From a virus (Duplodnaviria; Heunggongvirae; Uroviricota; Caudoviricetes), in the IMG/VR virus record IMGVR_UViG_2728369554_000019: a DNA stretch of 7,959 bases. The stretch is one strand, 5' to 3'. Below are positions 1 to 6,858 of this stretch, piece after piece; the first letter of the stretch is position 1, and every line of letters begins with the position of its first letter. The translations under genes and the position numbers were made by a program. A model generated the notes under the pieces. That model was not told the origin of the DNA, searched no databases, and was given only the letters and a program-made list of their open reading frames with translations.

Positions 1-1002
1 TTACCCTCTATTGTCAAAAGGGTTCAATTCAACAGCAGCCTCTAAATGACCTGGAGCAAAATGCGCATAACGCATAGTCATTTTTATATCGCTATGCCCC
101 AGTATTTTTTGCAACACAAGAATATTTCCGCCCCGCATCATAAAATGACTGGCAAACGTGTGACGTAGCACATGAGTTAATTGCCCATCAGGAAGCTCGA
201 TCTTCGCTCTCTTAATTGCAGCGTCAAAAGCCTCATAACATGGTGAAAATAGCGCTCCTCGTTTTTTGGGAAGCATAGCCTGCAATTGAGGTGAAATCGG
301 TACAGTGCGGTTCTTCTTTCCTTTAGTTTTAACAAATGTGATTCGACCGGGCAGTACTTGAGATTGCTTTAATCCTTCTGCTTCACTCCACCGAGCACCA
401 GTCGCAAGCCCAATACGGACAACAACCCCCAAATCTTTATTCCGTGACTCATCACACGCAATCAGAAGGCGTTCAATCTCATCTACATACAGAAACGCCA
501 GTTCCTTTTCTTCCTCACGAAACTTGCGAATACCAGTCAGGGGGTTTTCACCAGACCACTCCCCAAGGCGCTTCAGTTCGGCAAAAACAGCATGTAGATA
601 TGACTGCTCGCGATTAACGGTTGCTTCACTAAGTTTTTTCTTCCCCTTGGGATTCCATTCTCCTGATAGCCTTCTTTCCCGATAAGTGGCAAACATATTT
701 TTGTCAAACTGAGAAGCAAATGGATCTCCCAGCCTGGAACAAATCGCCTCAAGTTTGACTTTGCGCTCTGCACCAGAGGACAAGGTTTTACCGTACATCT
801 CAAACCAACGAGCAATCAACTCAGAAAGACGAGGACCAGAACCATCTTGAAACTCGTCTCCAACTCTACTATTCATTAAACGGCGCTCATAAGAGAGCGC
901 CTCACTTTTTGTCGCAAACTGTTTACGAATGCGTTTTCCCGATGCCCCGTAGGGATAACATTCGCAAAGCCATTTACCTGATGGAATCTTACGAACCGAC
1001 AT
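1..1002 (-). CDS. int: Tyrosine recombinase / phage integrase, P2/186 family, complete (333 aa)
   Basis: Translation shows the P2-family N-terminus (MSVRKIPSGKWLCECYPYGASGKRIRKQFATKSEAL) and tyrosine-recombinase catalytic boxes (GARWSEA; HVLRHTFASHFMMRGGNILVLQKILGH; MTMRYAH with the catalytic Tyr). Start ATG at 1000-1002 and stop TAA at 1-3 on the minus strand. Family assignment is from memory of 186/HP1/P2 integrases, not from a search. Confidence 0.9.
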   Translation of the reverse strand: MSVRKIPSGKWLCECYPYGASGKRIRKQFATKSEALSYERRLMNSRVGDEFQDGSGPRLSELIARWFEMYGKTLSSGAERKVKLEAICSRLGDPFASQFDKNMFATYRERRLSGEWNPKGKKKLSEATVNREQSYLHAVFAELKRLGEWSGENPLTGIRKFREEEKELAFLYVDEIERLLIACDESRNKDLGVVVRIGLATGARWSEAEGLKQSQVLPGRITFVKTKGKKNRTVPISPQLQAMLPKKRGALFSPCYEAFDAAIKRAKIELPDGQLTHVLRHTFASHFMMRGGNILVLQKILGHSDIKMTMRYAHFAPGHLEAAVELNPFDNRG

Positions 1003-1007
1003 TTTAG

Positions 1008-1355
1008 TTACTTATCACATAAATCAAATGCAGCCTTAGTGACATCCCCCAGACTCTTTTTTAACCCTGGGGCGGCATCATTATCTAGCCAAAATGGATT
1101 ATTGTTATCTAACGGTAACGCACCAAATGTTTTACCTTTTATTCGAGCCAAACCTGTAAGTGCATATAACTTATTATCGTCAAAATTCATCACATAAGGA
1201 TTACCATCAAGACACTGTAATTGAACCTCATCAGTATTAAATGGCCATACCCCATTGAAACTCTCACGTTCAATAGTTTTAAAAGGCATTGCGACGGCGG
1301 AAAAAGAAAACATAGATAAAAAAGTAACTAATAGTTGAACCTTTTTTACTTTCAT
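1008..1355 (-). CDS. Small secreted/periplasmic protein of unknown function (115 aa) with N-terminal signal peptide and two Cys in the mature part
   Basis: N-terminus MKVKKVQLLVTFLSMFSFSAVA-MP has a basic n-region, hydrophobic core and AXA-like cleavage site. Cys in QCLDG and DLCDK. SD GAGGT lies about 8 nt upstream of the ATG. Stop is 5 nt before the int start, with no separate SD for int. Confidence 0.6.
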   Translation of the reverse strand: MKVKKVQLLVTFLSMFSFSAVAMPFKTIERESFNGVWPFNTDEVQLQCLDGNPYVMNFDDNKLYALTGLARIKGKTFGALPLDNNNPFWLDNDAAPGLKKSLGDVTKAAFDLCDK

Positions 1356-1384
1356 ATCATTACCTCAATTTAGCTCAAGTAAGA

Positions 1385-2035
1385 TTACAAATTAAAAAAC
1401 GCCCTAGAAATGACACCGCCTACCAAAACCCCTACGCAGATAAAGAATATTATTTCTTTTGGATAAAGTCGGATTAATTCTGAAGCACGAAGTCGGACTT
1501 CTGGTAAGGTCGAACTCTCTGTGTGGCTTGATGCCGATTGTTGCTCTAACCACGACAATGCAGACTGTAACTGAGAACGAGTAAGATCGTTTAAACGTCC
1601 TGTACCGAAATTGATATGGCAATACCGCAGAAGTTTTTGTCGAAGTCCACAGTCTTCACTGTTACGTAGTAATAAACTTACAAGAGCCTTACAGGCATCA
1701 TGATCTTTACATCGCTCAAGCATTGCATGCAGAAAACTCTCCGCTGTTTTATATTGATTTACTGTCATATCATCAATACCAGCTACACCAATCTCCGCAT
1801 GTACTTTTTGCCAAATAATAAACGCTTCAGTATTGCTAGCTTCTGCAATAGCAGCAACCAAGCTATTTAGCTCCTTACGCTGAGCCTTAAGCAAAGGGCG
1901 ATCGTCATCATCATTATTCGAAGGGATTGCGATATTGACAGTATGAGAACCATCATATCGCTCTATCTGAATATTCTTTTCGTGAAAATCACGCCCAGCA
2001 ACGCGATTGTTTGAACCGTTTGAGTTGACGGCCAT
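1385..2035 (-). CDS. Tail-anchored membrane protein of unknown function (216 aa): soluble N-terminal domain plus a single C-terminal transmembrane helix
   Basis: Strong SD (AGGGAGGTGA) immediately upstream of the ATG. The only hydrophobic segment is at the extreme C-terminus (EIIFFICVGVLVGGVISRAFF). Acidic DDDD tract near the N-terminus. No recognisable catalytic motif by eye. Confidence 0.65.
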   Translation of the reverse strand: MAVNSNGSNNRVAGRDFHEKNIQIERYDGSHTVNIAIPSNNDDDDRPLLKAQRKELNSLVAAIAEASNTEAFIIWQKVHAEIGVAGIDDMTVNQYKTAESFLHAMLERCKDHDACKALVSLLLRNSEDCGLRQKLLRYCHINFGTGRLNDLTRSQLQSALSWLEQQSASSHTESSTLPEVRLRASELIRLYPKEIIFFICVGVLVGGVISRAFFNL

Positions 2036-2050
2036 GTCACCTCCCTACTA

Positions 2051-2455
2051 TCACCTACCCTTAGTTTCGTTATAGTCACGACCAGCGATACGGTTATTAC
2101 CACCAGAAATATTTAACTCACGTCCTGATGGCTGAGTTTCCTTTTCACTGATCGCACCTTTTAAAGCCCCAATCACCGCGTTTTTCACATCTAACGAAGC
2201 TGCTCGAAAGCGAGTAATCAACTCCTGCTCATCATCGTTATAAGTTTCAGGTGAGTGAATTCCCAACACAACATACTGAACATCAAGGCCAAAACGAGAC
2301 AGCGCTGCCAAATACGCAGCATCAGGAAAGCTATCTCCTTTCTCATATCTAAGCTGAGTTAGCTTTTTGACTCCACCAATGTCGCTCATGGCAACTTGAC
2401 TAAGTCCCAATCTTTCCCTTTCCTCACGCAACCGCTGACCAATATCATTTTTCAT
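2051..2455 (-). CDS. HTH XRE/Cro-CI-family transcriptional regulator, putative prophage immunity repressor (134 aa)
   Basis: N-terminal helix-turn-helix signature (IGQRLREERERLGLSQVAMSDIGGVKKLTQLRYEKG). It is the first gene of the leftward operon ending in int and is adjacent to the switch region, which is the position of C/cI in P2/186-type phages. Confidence 0.8.
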   Translation of the reverse strand: MKNDIGQRLREERERLGLSQVAMSDIGGVKKLTQLRYEKGDSFPDAAYLAALSRFGLDVQYVVLGIHSPETYNDDEQELITRFRAASLDVKNAVIGALKGAISEKETQPSGRELNISGGNNRIAGRDYNETKGR

Positions 2456-2530
2456 ACAAAAACCTTGACAGGTATCTTTTTTGATACCAAAATGATTTCA
2501 CGAGCTATTAGATGATCACAATATACCACT
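2456..2530. promoter_or_regulatory. Lysis/lysogeny switch region: candidate sigma70 -35 box plus 18-bp palindromic operator candidate
   Basis: TTGACA at 2465-2470 on the + strand; the downstream -10 is weak (CAAAAT-like). Perfect inverted repeat GGTATC-N6-GATACC at 2471-2488 lies in the promoter spacer. The 75-bp gap sits between oppositely oriented operons. Confidence 0.4.
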
Positions 2531-2737
2531 ATGAAACAAGTTCTTCACGATACCAGATCACGCATTCCGCGTAACACCGCCACAGGTCCAAGACTGGCAC
2601 TTCGGCTGTCCCTCGAGGAGCGAGCCGTCATTGATGAAATGGCAGCTAAAGAACAACGCTCATCCTCTAACATGGCGCGCATGATCTTCCTTCGCGGCCT
2701 AGAGCTAACCCAGAAAGAACAAAACAAATCTTCCTGA
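2531..2737 (+). CDS. Small DNA-binding protein, possibly ribbon-helix-helix (68 aa); putative early/lytic regulator
   Basis: First ORF of the rightward operon. Segment LALRLSLEERAVIDEMAAKEQRSSSNMARMIFLRGL resembles a beta-strand plus two-helix RHH pattern. No clear SD, so the start is uncertain. Confidence 0.45.
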   Translation: MKQVLHDTRSRIPRNTATGPRLALRLSLEERAVIDEMAAKEQRSSSNMARMIFLRGLELTQKEQNKSS

Positions 2738-2753
2738 TCAGGAGGCTAGTGGG

Positions 2754-2957
2754 ATGTCAGGTATAACCATCAATATCAATGTGAATGCCCCCTATGTATC
2801 CCTGCAGAAATATGCAGAGATAACAGGTATCCCTCTTAATACGTGCAAAAAGATGTTGGCTGACGGTCGAATTATTATCCGCCCCAAACGCGCCAAAATG
2901 GAAAAGCCTGAAGTAAACCTTGTGGCGATGTTAAAAGACGCTTTGGCTAACAGCTAA
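2754..2957 (+). CDS. Small HTH protein, Cox/Apl/excisionase-like (67 aa)
   Basis: SD AGGAGG 8 nt upstream of the ATG. Motif YVSLQKYAEITGIPLNTCKKMLADGRIIIRPKR matches the small HTH excisionase/regulator pattern of P2 Cox and 186 Apl (recalled from memory). Confidence 0.55.
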   Translation: MSGITININVNAPYVSLQKYAEITGIPLNTCKKMLADGRIIIRPKRAKMEKPEVNLVAMLKDALANS

Positions 2958-2978
2958 AACAATGAACAGAGCACCATC

Positions 2979-3586
2979 ATGAAAAAAAACGCTAATAATC
3001 CATACTCCAAATTTCGTAATGGCGTAGAACGCCATGTACACCACGTCGCTACCAGTGCATCACGTAGTAACAGTCGCTATAACCTGAACGAGACGCACGC
3101 AACACCGGATGGCCACGCTGTAAAACAAATCGGCGAGCATGCCTGGCTGATTGAGAAAGCTGGAATCGTGGTCCACAAATGCCTACGCAATCCGTTTACC
3201 GGAAACCGCATTTTTGCATTGAACTGCGGCGACAATCACTTCGGGCAGGATTTCACATTATACGAAGCACTTCGCACGGTTGATCGTCTGCTTCGCGGGC
3301 AAAGTTTTATTAAACAGNNNNNNNNNNNNNNNNNNNNNNNNNNNNNNNNNNNNNNNNNNNNNNNNNNNNNNNNNNNNNNNNNNNNNNNNNNNNNNNNNNN
3401 NNNNNNNNNNNNNACGCAGCTACTTACGTTTATCTGAACGGTACGCGCCTGACTGTGGAGCTTCCGTACCAGACCGTACGAGAAATCATTAGCGAAGCTG
3501 AAAAGGCACGTCAGGTTAATGGCGATGAACCCTATATCGAAATTATTTGTATGGATTCAGAAGCTGAAATTCAGAAAGCAGATTAA
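2979..3586 (+). CDS. Hypothetical early-region protein interrupted by a 96-N gap; N-terminal part 2979..3317, C-terminal part 3416..3586
   Basis: Open frame from ATG 2979 up to the N-run. After the gap a clean coding frame (AATYVYLNGTRLTVELPYQTVREIISEAEKARQVNGDEPYIEIICMDSEAEIQKAD) ends with TAA at 3584-3586. The two parts are in different frames across the N-run, so the gap length is not the true length. Confidence 0.4.
3318..3413. other. Assembly gap or masked region (96 N)
   Basis: Run of N inside an apparent coding region. Confidence 0.9.
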
Positions 3587-4043: not shown

Positions 4044-4365
4044 ATGCACGCAAAAGAAGAAGGTATCATCAGAGCACTGAAAGAAATNNNNNNNNNNNNN
4101 NNNNNNNNNNNNNNNNNNNNNNNNNNNNNNNNNNNNNNNNNNNNNNNNNNNNNNNNNNNNNNNNNNNNNNNNNNNNNNNNNNNNNNNNNNNNNNNNNNNN
4201 NNNNNNNNNNNNNNNNNNNNNNNNNNNNNNNNNNNNNNNNNNNNNNNNNNNNNNNNNNNNNNNNNNNNNNNNNNNNNNNNNNNAATTCTGACAAATCTCC
4301 GCCTGATAGAACGCTCTCAAGCTGTATTCATTGATGACGCGCAACGTGCCGTATTTAACGCATAG
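4044..4365 (+). CDS. Hypothetical early-region protein interrupted by a 196-N gap; N-terminal part 4044..4087, C-terminal part 4285..4365
   Basis: SD GGAG 8 nt upstream of ATG 4044 (MHAKEEGIIRALKE...). After the gap a coding-like frame (ILTNLRLIERSQAVFIDDAQRAVFNA) ends with TAG at 4363-4365. Frames do not match across the gap. Confidence 0.35.
4088..4283. other. Assembly gap or masked region (196 N)
   Basis: Run of N inside an apparent coding region. Confidence 0.9.
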
Positions 4366-5151: not shown

Positions 5152-5273
5152 GAAACCAGAACATGCACACACAAAAAAACCGCTTGCCATGCCTCAATCG
5201 GTCAGGTTACATTTCCGCTGCACCTCATAAAACGGGTGCCGGGATTCTCAACCCGATACAGAGCAAAGCGCAT

Positions 5274-5296
5274 AACCGCGCAAGCGGTTTTTTTGT
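5274..5296 (+). terminator. Candidate rho-independent terminator
   Basis: Stem ACCGC / GCGGT (5275-5279 and 5284-5288) with GNRA tetraloop GCAA, followed by a run of eight T (5288-5295). Confidence 0.5.
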
Positions 5297-5473
5297 GCGT
5301 ACTGTATTGCCACGTCTTTTTCGCGTCAGAATTATGGCGGGGCGTACGGGGCCGACTTCGGTCGGGCCGGATTCTTTGCTCTCCGGTGTTGAGAACCCTG
5401 TACGTCTCGCCACCCCGAGATTCTCAACTCTGGATGGTGAGTTATTTCTATCACCGAGCAAAGAGGCCACACC

Positions 5474-5704
5474 ATGGCAGACCGCAAACAGCACCGCGCT
5501 ATCGCGGAGCGTCGTCACATCCAGACTGAAATCAACCACAGACTTTCCCGCGCATCACGCGTCGCGCAAATCATGCACATCAATATGCTGCATGAGCGCA
5601 GCCACGCACTATCAAACATTTATTCCGCCTCTGTTTTCAGCTATCTGGCGGATGATCTGCACGAGCTTCAACAGCTCATCCAGCAGCAAAACAAACTCCA
5701 TTAA
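5474..5704 (+). CDS. Hypothetical small basic protein (76 aa)
   Basis: SD AAGAGG about 8 nt upstream. Charged, helical-looking composition. Preferred over the overlapping 205-aa ORF 5163..5780, which runs through the terminator structures. Confidence 0.45.
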   Translation: MADRKQHRAIAERRHIQTEINHRLSRASRVAQIMHINMLHERSHALSNIYSASVFSYLADDLHELQQLIQQQNKLH

Positions 5705-5776
5705 TTCCTGTTCCGGGCCTTTCCTGCACCTTGCGGCGGGAGGCCTTCGCACATCTGTAACAAGAGGATTGCCGCA

Positions 5777-6142
5777 ATGATTCTCGCCAACGACTTTCTT
5801 GAATACCTGCTCAACACAGAGCGTGATCTTGCCGCTCGCGTACGTGATCGTTATGACATGTATCTGAAATCCCTGCCTGTACCGCAGCTCGCTGACGGAA
5901 AAATTGTTATTGATGGTCGCTACATGATTGACAGCCACGAGGGGAATTACAGGCTTTACCGCATTGAAGCCGGCACCCCGTCCGTTATTGGCATTTACCA
6001 GCGCCCATCCTCTGCGATCGTCGATGTGATTGCCGACAGCATCCGCATCACACACCACCATGCCGACACAGAAGACACTGTGCTGGAGATTCAGCGGCTG
6101 GCTACCGTTTGCCGTGACACTCTGAACGGAATGACGAAGTAA
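5777..6142 (+). CDS. Hypothetical protein (121 aa) immediately upstream of the replication gene
   Basis: SD AAGAGGA 8 nt upstream. Stop is 6 nt before the gpA-like start. A second, 5'-truncated copy lies at 6538..6858. Confidence 0.6.
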   Translation: MILANDFLEYLLNTERDLAARVRDRYDMYLKSLPVPQLADGKIVIDGRYMIDSHEGNYRLYRIEAGTPSVIGIYQRPSSAIVDVIADSIRITHHHADTEDTVLEIQRLATVCRDTLNGMTK

Positions 6143-6526: not shown

Positions 6527-6536
6527 NNNNNNNNNN
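6527..6536. other. 10-N scaffold gap at the junction of two about 95% identical direct repeat copies
   Basis: Run of 10 N. Sequence 5822..6526 is repeated at 6538..7242. Confidence 0.9.
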
Positions 6537-6537
6537 A

Positions 6538-6858
6538 CGTGATCTTGCCGCTCGCGTGCGTGATCGTTATGACATGTACCTGAAATCCCTGCCTGTACCG
6601 CAGCTCGCTGACGGAAAGATTGTTATTGATGGTCGCTACATGATTGACAGCCACGAGGGAAATTACAGGCTTTACCGCATTGAAGGTGGCACCCCGTCCG
6701 TTATTGGCATTTACCAGCGCCCATCCTCTGCAATCGTCGATGTGATTGCCGACAGCATCCGCATCACACATCGCCATGCCGACACAGAAGACACCGTGCT
6801 GGAAATTCAGCGGCTGGCTACAGTCTGCCGCGACACCCTGAATGGCATGACGAAGTAA
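6538..6858 (+). CDS. Second copy of the 121-aa hypothetical gene, 5'-truncated at the gap (lacks the first ~15 codons)
   Basis: In-frame translation from 6538 (RDLAARVRDRYDMYLKSLPVPQ...GMTK) matches residues 16-121 of the 5777..6142 product with a few substitutions. The M at 6556 in the ORF track is an internal GTG. Confidence 0.5.
   Translation, partial: RDLAARVRDRYDMYLKSLPVPQLADGKIVIDGRYMIDSHEGNYRLYRIEGGTPSVIGIYQRPSSAIVDVIADSIRITHRHADTEDTVLEIQRLATVCRDTLNGMTK

Follow-up and report, generated by a model that had tools for sequence, protein, structure and literature searches.

A repressor and a tail-anchored Flk_N protein with matching termini form a conserved two-gene cassette beside a variable gene slot in P2-like and Mu-like temperate phages

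What are two additional genes doing between the immunity repressor and the integrase of a P2-like prophage, and do they belong together? This question is raised by a stretch of 7,959 nucleotides from IMG/VR virus record IMGVR_UViG_2728369554_000019 (the window, by which we mean the whole stretch), which corresponds to the left arm of a P2-like (Xuanwuvirus/P88-type) prophage inserted beside yecA in Escherichia coli. In the Xuanwuvirus relatives P88, PhiR44_2 and P88_4B11 the C repressor adjoins int directly, 66-96 nt apart, the arrangement that an earlier note on this DNA had given as usual for P2/186-type phages, and the extra genes found here in that interval, ORF216 and ORF115, are a real departure from the P88-type layout. 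The earlier note regarded them as cargo inserted as a single unit, a candidate superinfection-exclusion module made of a membrane protein and a secreted protein. In this work, we find instead that the repressor and ORF216 constitute a conserved two-gene immunity cassette of P2-like and Mu/BcepMu-like temperate phages, whose products carry matching termini, and that ORF115 is swappable cargo.

The four genes lie on the minus strand with exactly the spacing previously described: the repressor gene is followed after 15 nt by ORF216, after a further 29 nt by ORF115, and after 5 nt by int. The first gene of this leftward operon (2051..2455) encodes an XRE-family helix-turn-helix (HTH) protein of 134 aa with HTH_31/HTH_3 and repressor-type PHROG matches, which we infer to be the immunity repressor; ORF216 (1385..2035) encodes a 216-aa protein matching phrog_5825 (4e-103); ORF115 (1008..1355) encodes a 115-aa secreted protein; and the last gene (1..1002) encodes a tyrosine integrase (Pfam Int_N 5e-32, Phage_integrase 2.5e-22; phrog_1 1.4e-76). 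The equivalent element in E. coli O157:H7 Sakai is prophage Sp13, where int, ORF115, ORF216 and the repressor correspond to ECs2617, ECs2618, ECs2619 and ECs2620, respectively; a literature search on ECs2618-2620 returned one gene list only. At least 80% of window positions 1-3300 was found in 508 of 5,426 complete E. coli genomes, and in the same set ORF216 was present in 525 genomes and ORF115 in 507. Both middle genes have good Shine-Dalgarno sites (GGGAGG for ORF216, GAGG for ORF115), and they are genuine conserved genes rather than chance ORFs, since full-length homologs with 56-72% identity occur across Enterobacterales. A sequence scan detected no terminator-like site within positions 900-2800, and the span from the repressor through int thus fits a single transcription unit.

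To place this layout among its relatives, about 105 loci encoding homologs of ORF216 were gathered from NCBI genomes (Klebsiella, E. coli, Citrobacter, Serratia, Erwinia and others) and IMG/VR contigs, and four gene types were mapped onto them, namely the HTH repressor, Flk_N (the type of ORF216), YebY-like (the type of ORF115) and int; a scan of species-representative genomes yielded 7 loci only. The XRE repressor gene was found upstream of the Flk_N gene in all of these loci, with a gap of 2-18 nt in 47 of 48 distinct pairs, the exception being given by two Erwinia loci (L022/L023) where a YebY-like gene is interposed and the gap reaches 388 nt. Furthermore, the cassette is present in Mu-like prophages of Pectobacterium and Gilliamella, and its BcepMu equivalent is the gp17/gp18 pair. 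Among the surveyed loci the Flk_N proteins are 56-72% identical, and the HTH proteins are less conserved (34-56%). As it is present in every locus with this repressor class, ORF216 belongs to the immunity module of the repressor and is not cargo. Conversely, 60 distinct sequences of 300-1,850 bp, with at least 10 alternative gene contents, were counted for the hypervariable interval from the Flk_N gene to int, and the YebY-like gene occurs only in some loci; owing to this variability, and to a GC content markedly lower than that of the neighbouring genes (35.3% vs 41-45%), ORF115 is swappable cargo. The idea of inserted cargo is therefore borne out for ORF115 and fails for ORF216: the repressor-int interval varies beside int and is fixed after the repressor, and ORF216 and ORF115 do not constitute a single insertion. 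Two IMG/VR loci (L072, L073) have a repressor 93-94% identical to that of the window but another slot content (DUF8087), and identity drops to 71-72% in their Flk_N protein. This suggests a recombination breakpoint between the repressor gene and that of its partner, at the place that encodes the repeated motif.

This repeated motif was an unexpected trait of the cassette. The last ~17-30 residues of the repressor and the first ~17-30 of its partner share a G/N/Q-rich stretch; in the window, the repressor end NISGGNNRIAGRDYNE is mirrored at the ORF216 start VNSNGSNNRVAGRDFHE, and the fuller termini read ...LNISGGNNRIAGRDYNETKGR for the repressor and MAVNSNGSNNRVAGRDFHEKNIQIE for ORF216. The motif in the repressor C-terminal tail covers aa 114-130 (LNISGGNNRIAGRDYNE; 2066..2116, minus strand) and is followed by the basic end TKGR, and that of ORF216 covers aa 3-19 (1979..2029, minus strand); no third copy exists in the 40-kb prophage region. 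The match between tail and head holds in 48 of 48 distinct enterobacterial pairs, despite HTH divergence to 34-56% identity. The version of the motif varies by lineage and matches inside each pair, in P2-like, Mu-like and metagenomic relatives alike. For instance, the repressor tail and the N-terminus of the next protein read QQFNGPVGTVTTGDVVN and QQFHGAVEQVAAGDIKN in a Pseudomonas-like contig (L112), IFNGDISGQFAGNQIIN and EFNGTAQGQFSSRDIIN in a Mu-like prophage of Pectobacterium (L113), and GEGQIAGGNIY and TAEQIAGRDIY in Gilliamella (L114), and two metagenomic loci are among the strongest matches (INGGQFSTGTIHNHYKEK with DIHGGQFGNIHNHYEQK in L131, and VHGGVAAGDIVN with VHGGVAGRDIYN in L133). 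In BcepMu (L199, NC_005882: 9226-10421), the genes for gp17, a repressor-like HTH protein, and gp18, a membrane protein, overlap by 4 nt and their products have the matching termini EQVFHGSVGQAVKVEG and KQEFNKPVGQAIQAGE; gp18 has, in addition, a second motif-like copy, SIGSVAGRDIVNV. This gp17, a homolog of the window repressor, is treated as a lysogeny repressor (PMC2628397).

A metagenome scan with the HTH alignment added 80 loci, and among repressor homologs with a G/N/Q-rich tail the next ORF, separated by between -4 and +45 nt, usually starts with a lineage-specific match; no motif-bearing neighbour accompanies the HTH relatives that lack the tail. In 39 non-redundant pairs of repressor and next ORF, chosen regardless of the motif, the mean local-alignment score was 34 for cognate and 18 for non-cognate combinations, and 0 of 20,000 permutations reached the observed sum. 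For 21 motif-bearing pairs the respective means were 50 and 25 (0 of 50,000 permutations), this being the weaker test because the set had been selected by cognate score. A score of at least 30 was obtained by 20 of the 39 repressor pairs, compared with 4 of 397 other adjacent collinear ORF pairs from the same loci. The motif regions are also compositionally distinct, with a G/N/Q fraction of 0.31-0.33 vs 0.14-0.16 elsewhere in the proteins (0.33 vs 0.16 for the repressor tails).

The partner is often not a Flk_N protein: proteins of 136-175 aa with two transmembrane segments (2-TM), zinc-ribbon proteins with a transmembrane segment, larger multi-TM proteins and occasionally small soluble proteins were found in its position, with no match in Pfam and none of note in PADLOC. 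As it is attached to partners as unrelated as these, the motif behaves as a portable adaptor. Codons are identical at only 45% of the residues that are identical between tail and head, so the match is maintained at the protein level, and recent gene conversion was rejected as its cause. Stop-codon read-through or ribosome hopping to an HTH-Flk_N fusion was discarded as well, given that three consecutive stops are present in the window and that the gaps are not always multiples of three, and no fused HTH-Flk_N protein was found among several hundred relatives. We found no description in the literature of a repressor-partner cassette with co-varying termini, though BcepMu gp17/gp18 have been in databases since 2004.

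Regarding the partner encoded in the window, the earlier view that neither middle protein shows a motif assignable to a known family is superseded, as ORF115 passes the DUF2511 threshold (see below) and ORF216 carries Flk_N. ORF216 matches the NCBIfam Flk model NF007987 (E=8.6e-16, aa 37-166 onto Flk 20-149) with 58.1 bits, not reaching the equivalog cutoff of 353 bits, and its homologs carry PF27202 Flk_N. In the AlphaFold2 (AF2) model four segments can be distinguished, namely a disordered N-terminus of ~45 residues, a five-helix bundle, a linker and a C-terminal membrane helix. The bundle (aa 50-172) has a predicted local distance difference test (pLDDT) value mostly of 82-92, with a dip to 66-73 at aa 111-130, and, together with the NCBIfam match, delimits a Flk_N-type helical domain at aa 37-172 (1520..1927, minus strand). 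The hydrophobic C-terminal helix, aa 192-214 (1394..1462, minus strand), agrees with the tail anchor proposed previously, such a segment being present in most phage-type members of the family, and it leaves at most about 6 residues on the periplasmic side. A Foldseek search with the model gave no neighbour at E<0.001 in PDB or BFVD; the best sub-threshold matches were a SaPI2 Stl/Sak complex, an ORF6C-domain protein and RecT C-termini.

Flk, a flagellar export regulator of Salmonella and E. coli that is treated as a tail-anchored protein (PMC6794478), shares with ORF216 both the Flk_N domain and the C-terminal anchor. However, Flk has about 330 aa and no matching motif, whereas ORF216 has 216 aa and bears the motif; and, unlike Flk, the ORF216 type is always phage-borne and follows the repressor. 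An exhaustive hidden Markov model (HMM) search over 1.8 billion representatives yielded only 135 relatives of ORF216, which split into a phage type of 180-220 aa, resembling ORF216, and a host Flk type of 320-420 aa without the N-terminal matching motif; scans of viral contigs with the distant Flk_N representatives P0163 and P0235 found nothing, and neither did a literature search on Flk and prophages return anything relevant. A Flk-like flagellar role for ORF216 was considered and is unlikely, because the phage-type family is abundant in prophages of Klebsiella. Members of this genus are generally non-motile.

The slot next to int houses, besides the YebY-like gene, genes for DUF8087-type proteins of 81-108 aa, a BRCT plus WYL-like protein of 288-295 aa, a protein of 292-298 aa with a C-terminal BRCT domain that is a clear homolog of phage K139 Orf2, a zinc-ribbon protein together with a tail-anchored coiled-coil protein, and several signal-peptide or transmembrane proteins. 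The BRCT-domain slot proteins (288 aa with BRCT and WYL-like parts, and 292-298 aa) occur in Klebsiella and other prophages (L006-L010, L078 and L097, among others), and they gave weak PDC-S48/WYL matches in PADLOC, where the slot proteins otherwise had none. K139, a P2-family phage of Vibrio (NC_003313), has the gene order cI, orf2, glo, int, and thus shares with the window the presence of extra genes between repressor and int on the lysogenic strand; it differs in that its repressor is of the CI type (PF07022 plus Phage_CI_C), not XRE, and has no Flk_N partner. Its Orf2 contains a BRCT domain and has 34% identity (E=9e-51) with the slot protein of 292 aa present in some surveyed prophages, and Nesper et al. 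reportedly found in 1999 that Orf2 also contributes to preventing superinfection. Glo is annotated as periplasmic and involved in phage exclusion, and is regarded as a periplasmic exclusion protein (PMC4870250). Since K139 shares the position and an Orf2 homolog fills the slot in related prophages, the slot is a plausible home for exclusion functions.

The slot gene of the window, ORF115, is a DUF2511 moron, a newly found member of a known family. It matches Pfam DUF2511 (PF10709) with 28.4 bits (gathering cutoff 21, E=2.3e-6, profile positions 2-87 of 87) and, by sequence, the E. coli YebY crystal structure (PDB 7n0j, E=0.003, both cysteines aligned). As the first reading had noticed, it has a signal peptide and a cysteine pair: aa 1-22 (MKVKKVQLLVTFLSMFSFSAVA/M; 1290..1355, minus strand) form on inspection a classical n-h-c region ending AVA/M, and Cys48 and Cys113, invariant in 13 homologs, align with the YebY Cys48-Cys113 disulfide. 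The mature protein would have about 93 aa and 10.4 kDa and be acidic (pI 4.7). Only two significant PDB neighbours were obtained for its AF2 model (pLDDT 76): YebY 7n0j (E=1.5e-4, TMt 0.73-0.80) and the lantibiotic-binding lipoprotein MlbQ (6qfp and 2mvo, E~0.01). ORF115 therefore resembles YebY/MlbQ in its HMM match, its signal peptide, its pair of conserved cysteines and its predicted fold; however, it is only about 26-32% identical to YebY, which sits in the yobA-yebZ-yebY (AZY) operon, with yobA (CopC) and yebZ (CopD), instead of beside a prophage int. YebY family members are periplasmic, YebY has been linked to copper delivery and MlbQ proposed as a binder of the lantibiotic NAI-107, and the 2021 study of YebY already noted that in Enterobacteriaceae DUF2511 genes lie with a XerD-like recombinase on one side and a phage CI repressor on the other (PMC8689200).

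By analogy with K139, where glo likewise encodes a small periplasmic-type product next to int, ORF115 (predicted to be one) may be considered a positional and topological analogue of Glo, and its site of action may be the periplasm, with a part in exclusion (the role of Glo in K139) or in lysogenic conversion, a proposal that we hold tentatively; a superinfection-exclusion or defence function is possible mainly for ORF115. For such a role it would not need ORF216, which hardly reaches into the periplasm; the two genes are also found separately. Several results weigh against an exclusion role of ORF115: it has no sequence similarity to Glo (E=9.1); the PADLOC-DB v2 defence models gave no match to it, nor to ORF216, at E<=1; and the relatives YebY and MlbQ are tied to copper handling and lantibiotic binding, not to phage. 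ORF216 is likewise dissimilar to Orf2 (E=0.24), of which no homolog exists in the window. The alternative that ORF115 is a host lysogenic-conversion factor, a periplasmic binder of copper or of peptide antibiotics or bacteriocins with no anti-phage activity, seems to us somewhat doubtful. It would agree with a fold and Cys pair that are those of YebY and MlbQ, with the copper delivery and NAI-107 binding attributed to these two (PMC8689200), and with a gene that has remained intact both in Sp13, a degraded prophage, and in about 500 genomes of E. coli; against it stand the identity of only about 30% to YebY, the lack of adjacent yobA/yebZ, and the fact that the slot elsewhere houses the homolog of K139 Orf2, the protein with the reported superinfection-preventing phenotype.

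How, then, could the repressor and ORF216 work together? The tails probably couple the two proteins directly. We propose that the repressor tail and the ORF216 head would associate by beta-strand pairing, perhaps amyloid-like, and that this pairing would link the availability of the repressor to a membrane-anchored protein. ORF216 might then be an input to the lysogenic switch that acts on the repressor by tethering, titrating or conformationally inactivating it, a role that we regard as possible, with considerable reservation. It is favoured because the repressor has no other signal-receiving domain; because the order repressor-partner-int mirrors that of ImmR-ImmA-Int operons; because in the amyloid-signalling paradigm the N-terminal motif belongs to the sensor; and because Flk, also membrane-anchored, affects the fate of FlgM, a transcription regulator. 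In the ImmR-ImmA-Int operons of ICEBs1 and phages, an HTH repressor, a partner acting on the repressor and an integrase are encoded in one lysogenic transcript; the gene order is the same in the window, with ORF216 in the position of ImmA. ImmA, however, is a metalloprotease, and ORF216 has neither a metalloprotease signature nor a Pfam hit; coupling here would take place by the tails rather than by proteolysis. The logic of the proposed action also resembles the sequestration of Mlc by PtsG and that of the VP882 repressor by Qtip. As a whole, the explanation that combines a matched repressor-ORF216 pair with ORF115 as swappable cargo is put forward tentatively.

A number of points weigh against this explanation. 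An antagonist expressed from the repressor's own promoter would need extra control, and none was found; the isrK/C4 antisense-RNA module of the same prophage (described below) may already provide an antirepressor route; and the small 2-TM partners look effector-like rather than sensor-like. The ORF216 motif segment is disordered in the AF2 monomer (pLDDT 41-47). The surveyed loci are related by descent, with E. coli over-sampled, and, of the two permutation tests, that on the unselected 39 pairs is the cleaner one. Finally, the tail-bearing repressors of Komp_PAO1_1, L141 and L155 have no motif-bearing neighbour, and because such repressors exist the tail must, it appears, also have a partner-independent role. 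In Komp_PAO1_1, a Pseudomonas phage (L200, 36468-37613), the gene after the repressor encodes a signal-peptide protein.

The main rival to ORF216 as a switch input is a Rex-like effector, in which ORF216 and the other motif-bearing membrane partners would be the killing or exclusion arm of an immunity-linked abortive infection, and the repressor its sensor or guard. In such a system, when the repressor is attacked, titrated or degraded, e.g., by the antirepressor of another phage or satellite, its tail would activate the membrane protein and the membrane would be perturbed. Co-transcription with the repressor would be in line with this, as in lambda cI-rexA-rexB, whose repressor operon provides the lysogen with a membrane protein; the window likewise encodes a membrane protein in its repressor operon, yet lambda Rex has no matched tails, and here there is a single partner protein without similarity to any PADLOC model. 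The diversity of the small 2-TM partners favours the effector role, one regulator with many different small membrane partners (2-TM, tail-anchored) being the usual pattern of swappable effectors, and exported or lipoprotein morons are adjacent in many loci. However, neither ORF216 nor the alternative partners match a PADLOC or Pfam effector family, Flk_N is a soluble bundle of helices held by one anchor helix, not an obvious pore, and some partners are soluble. Overall, we judge a Rex-like effector unlikely, if still worth serious consideration.

Matching termini of this kind have a precedent in amyloid signalling pairs, such as fungal HET-s/NWD2 and the Bell/NOD-like receptor (NLR) pairs with bacterial amyloid signalling sequences (BASS), for which the discovery signature was the match of short motifs between the C-terminus of one protein and the N-terminus of the product of an adjacent, collinear and close gene, and which were reported as rare or absent in Proteobacteria (Dyrka et al., 2020, bioRxiv 10.1101/2020.01.06.895854). 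The repressor-ORF216 cassette shares several traits with BASS/HET-s systems, namely matching G/N/Q-rich motifs of at least 15 aa, collinear close or overlapping genes, and a membrane-directed partner. It differs from them in its domains, as BASS pairs consist of an NLR (NB-ARC/NACHT plus repeats) and a Bell/HeLo-type protein, and here an XRE HTH protein is paired with Flk_N or other membrane proteins; moreover, the carriers are phages of unicellular Proteobacteria, and the amyloid likeness of the motifs is putative, the traits observed being their G/N/Q-rich composition and the disorder in the monomer model. Because the domains differ and such pairs were reported rare or absent in this phylum, we have not classified the cassette as BASS; it is rather akin to both repressor/antirepressor modules and matching-motif signalling pairs, with differing components. 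That the matched tails are a prion-type, amyloid-like signalling device of temperate phages in unicellular Proteobacteria seems distinctly unlikely. Under this more specific proposal, the ORF216 N-terminal motif would template the repressor C-terminal motif, or the reverse, and an all-or-none, self-propagating conversion or sequestration of the repressor would constitute a commitment step for induction or for the triggering of a membrane effector.

A further alternative to direct coupling is that the tails make no contact between repressor and partner: a third factor, such as a protease or adaptor, might recognise both, or the motifs might be tandem-repeat relics of an ancestral fused protein with occasional gene conversion. 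The repressor tails end in basic residues (KK, KKNK, RRRKTK), reminiscent of the ClpX C-motif-2; ClpX recognises the C-terminal tail of the Mu repressor and the end of MuA. In the same direction, the two motif copies are close direct repeats, in frame at many loci, and some repressors retain the tail without a partner. Different codons are used, however, at 55% of the identical residues, no fused HTH-Flk_N protein appeared among several hundred relatives, and tail and head still match where the motif version is very different or the partner unrelated; therefore, continuing selection for matching is needed, which a generic protease tag would not require. We find the absence of contact improbable. 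Lastly, it is very improbable that ORF216 and ORF115 form one inserted two-gene superinfection-exclusion unit like T4 Imm/Sp, the model of the earlier note: the two genes occur in this order in E. coli, Klebsiella, Citrobacter, Serratia and Rosenbergiella (swapped in Erwinia) and are similarly diverged (about 60-70%), but most lineages have ORF216 homologs and no YebY-like gene, the slot being filled in at least 9 other ways, DUF2511 genes are reported beside CI-type repressors, a different repressor family (PMC8689200), ORF216 exposes too little to the periplasm (the few residues given above), and the GC content of ORF115 is distinctly lower.

Upstream of the repressor gene, the region 2456..2530 may function as a divergent control region, as the repressor gene is transcribed divergently from two early genes on the plus strand, the first for an Arc-like ribbon-helix-helix protein (2531-2737; phrog_3431, 1e-28) and the second for a Cox-like excisionase/repressor (2754-2957; phrog_575, 1.2e-27). 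This region contains a rightward promoter-like site, TTGACA-17-CAAAAT (2465-2493, plus strand; the consensus scan was overall at chance level), with the perfect inverted repeat GGTATC-N6-GATACC (2471-2488) in its spacer, which is a candidate operator of the repressor. The RefSeq annotation conflicts with the Arc-like ORF, as it places a 45-aa 'hypothetical protein' over it on the other strand (2545-2682, minus).

Other observations concern the early region and the rest of the prophage. An isrK gene (5220-5294, plus strand; Rfam, 63 bits) and a C4 antisense RNA gene (5330-5417, plus strand; 78.5 bits), both above the gathering scores and unannotated in the RefSeq copies, suggest a P1 ImmI-like antirepressor control in the early region. 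Two ORFs downstream of them, 5474-5704 (phrog_3688) and 5777-6142 (phrog_3237), may be the antirepressor cassette controlled by isrK/C4. ORF 5163-5780 lies over the isrK and C4 RNA genes, on their strand, and for this reason its PHROG 'transcriptional regulator' matches were treated as artefacts. A 300-nt direct repeat (5822-6121 and 6538-6837) is 95% identical and 716 nt apart, with a run of 10 Ns (6527-6536) between the copies, and could be a real duplication or an assembly artefact; in the same interval, the RefSeq annotation of E. coli RM11911 has two small coding sequences only, with the replication endonuclease directly after them, and the long minus-strand ORFs over the repeat area look spurious. 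Masked N-runs at 3318-3413, 4088-4283 and 6527-6536 break several ORFs of the early region. The intact version of this P2-like prophage, in RM11911 (L198, 9493-10768 and 35635-35775), encodes a ParM-type segregation pair and a Hok/Gef toxin gene, plasmid-like maintenance functions that are unusual for an integrated prophage.

The repressor family reaches Yersinia, Salmonella, Dickeya, Pectobacterium, Gilliamella, Pseudomonas and Burkholderia, with several versions of the tail. This class of repressor, without a RecA-cleavable domain, is used by P2-like prophages of E. coli O157, other Shiga toxin-producing E. coli, Klebsiella, Salmonella and Serratia, and also by BcepMu-like transposable phages. 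As to how prophages of this class sense induction, and what their lysogenic operons give to the host, a repressor coupled by its tail to a membrane partner constitutes a concrete hypothesis. If the tails act by templated beta-structure, this would represent amyloid-type signalling outside NLR systems and in unicellular bacteria, and the full amyloid proposal, if true, would take the NLR/Bell signalling principle into phage lysogeny control with new partner domains. Furthermore, the interval from the Flk_N gene to int constitutes a hotspot of uncharacterised lysogen-expressed genes, and thus a source of candidate exclusion and conversion functions.

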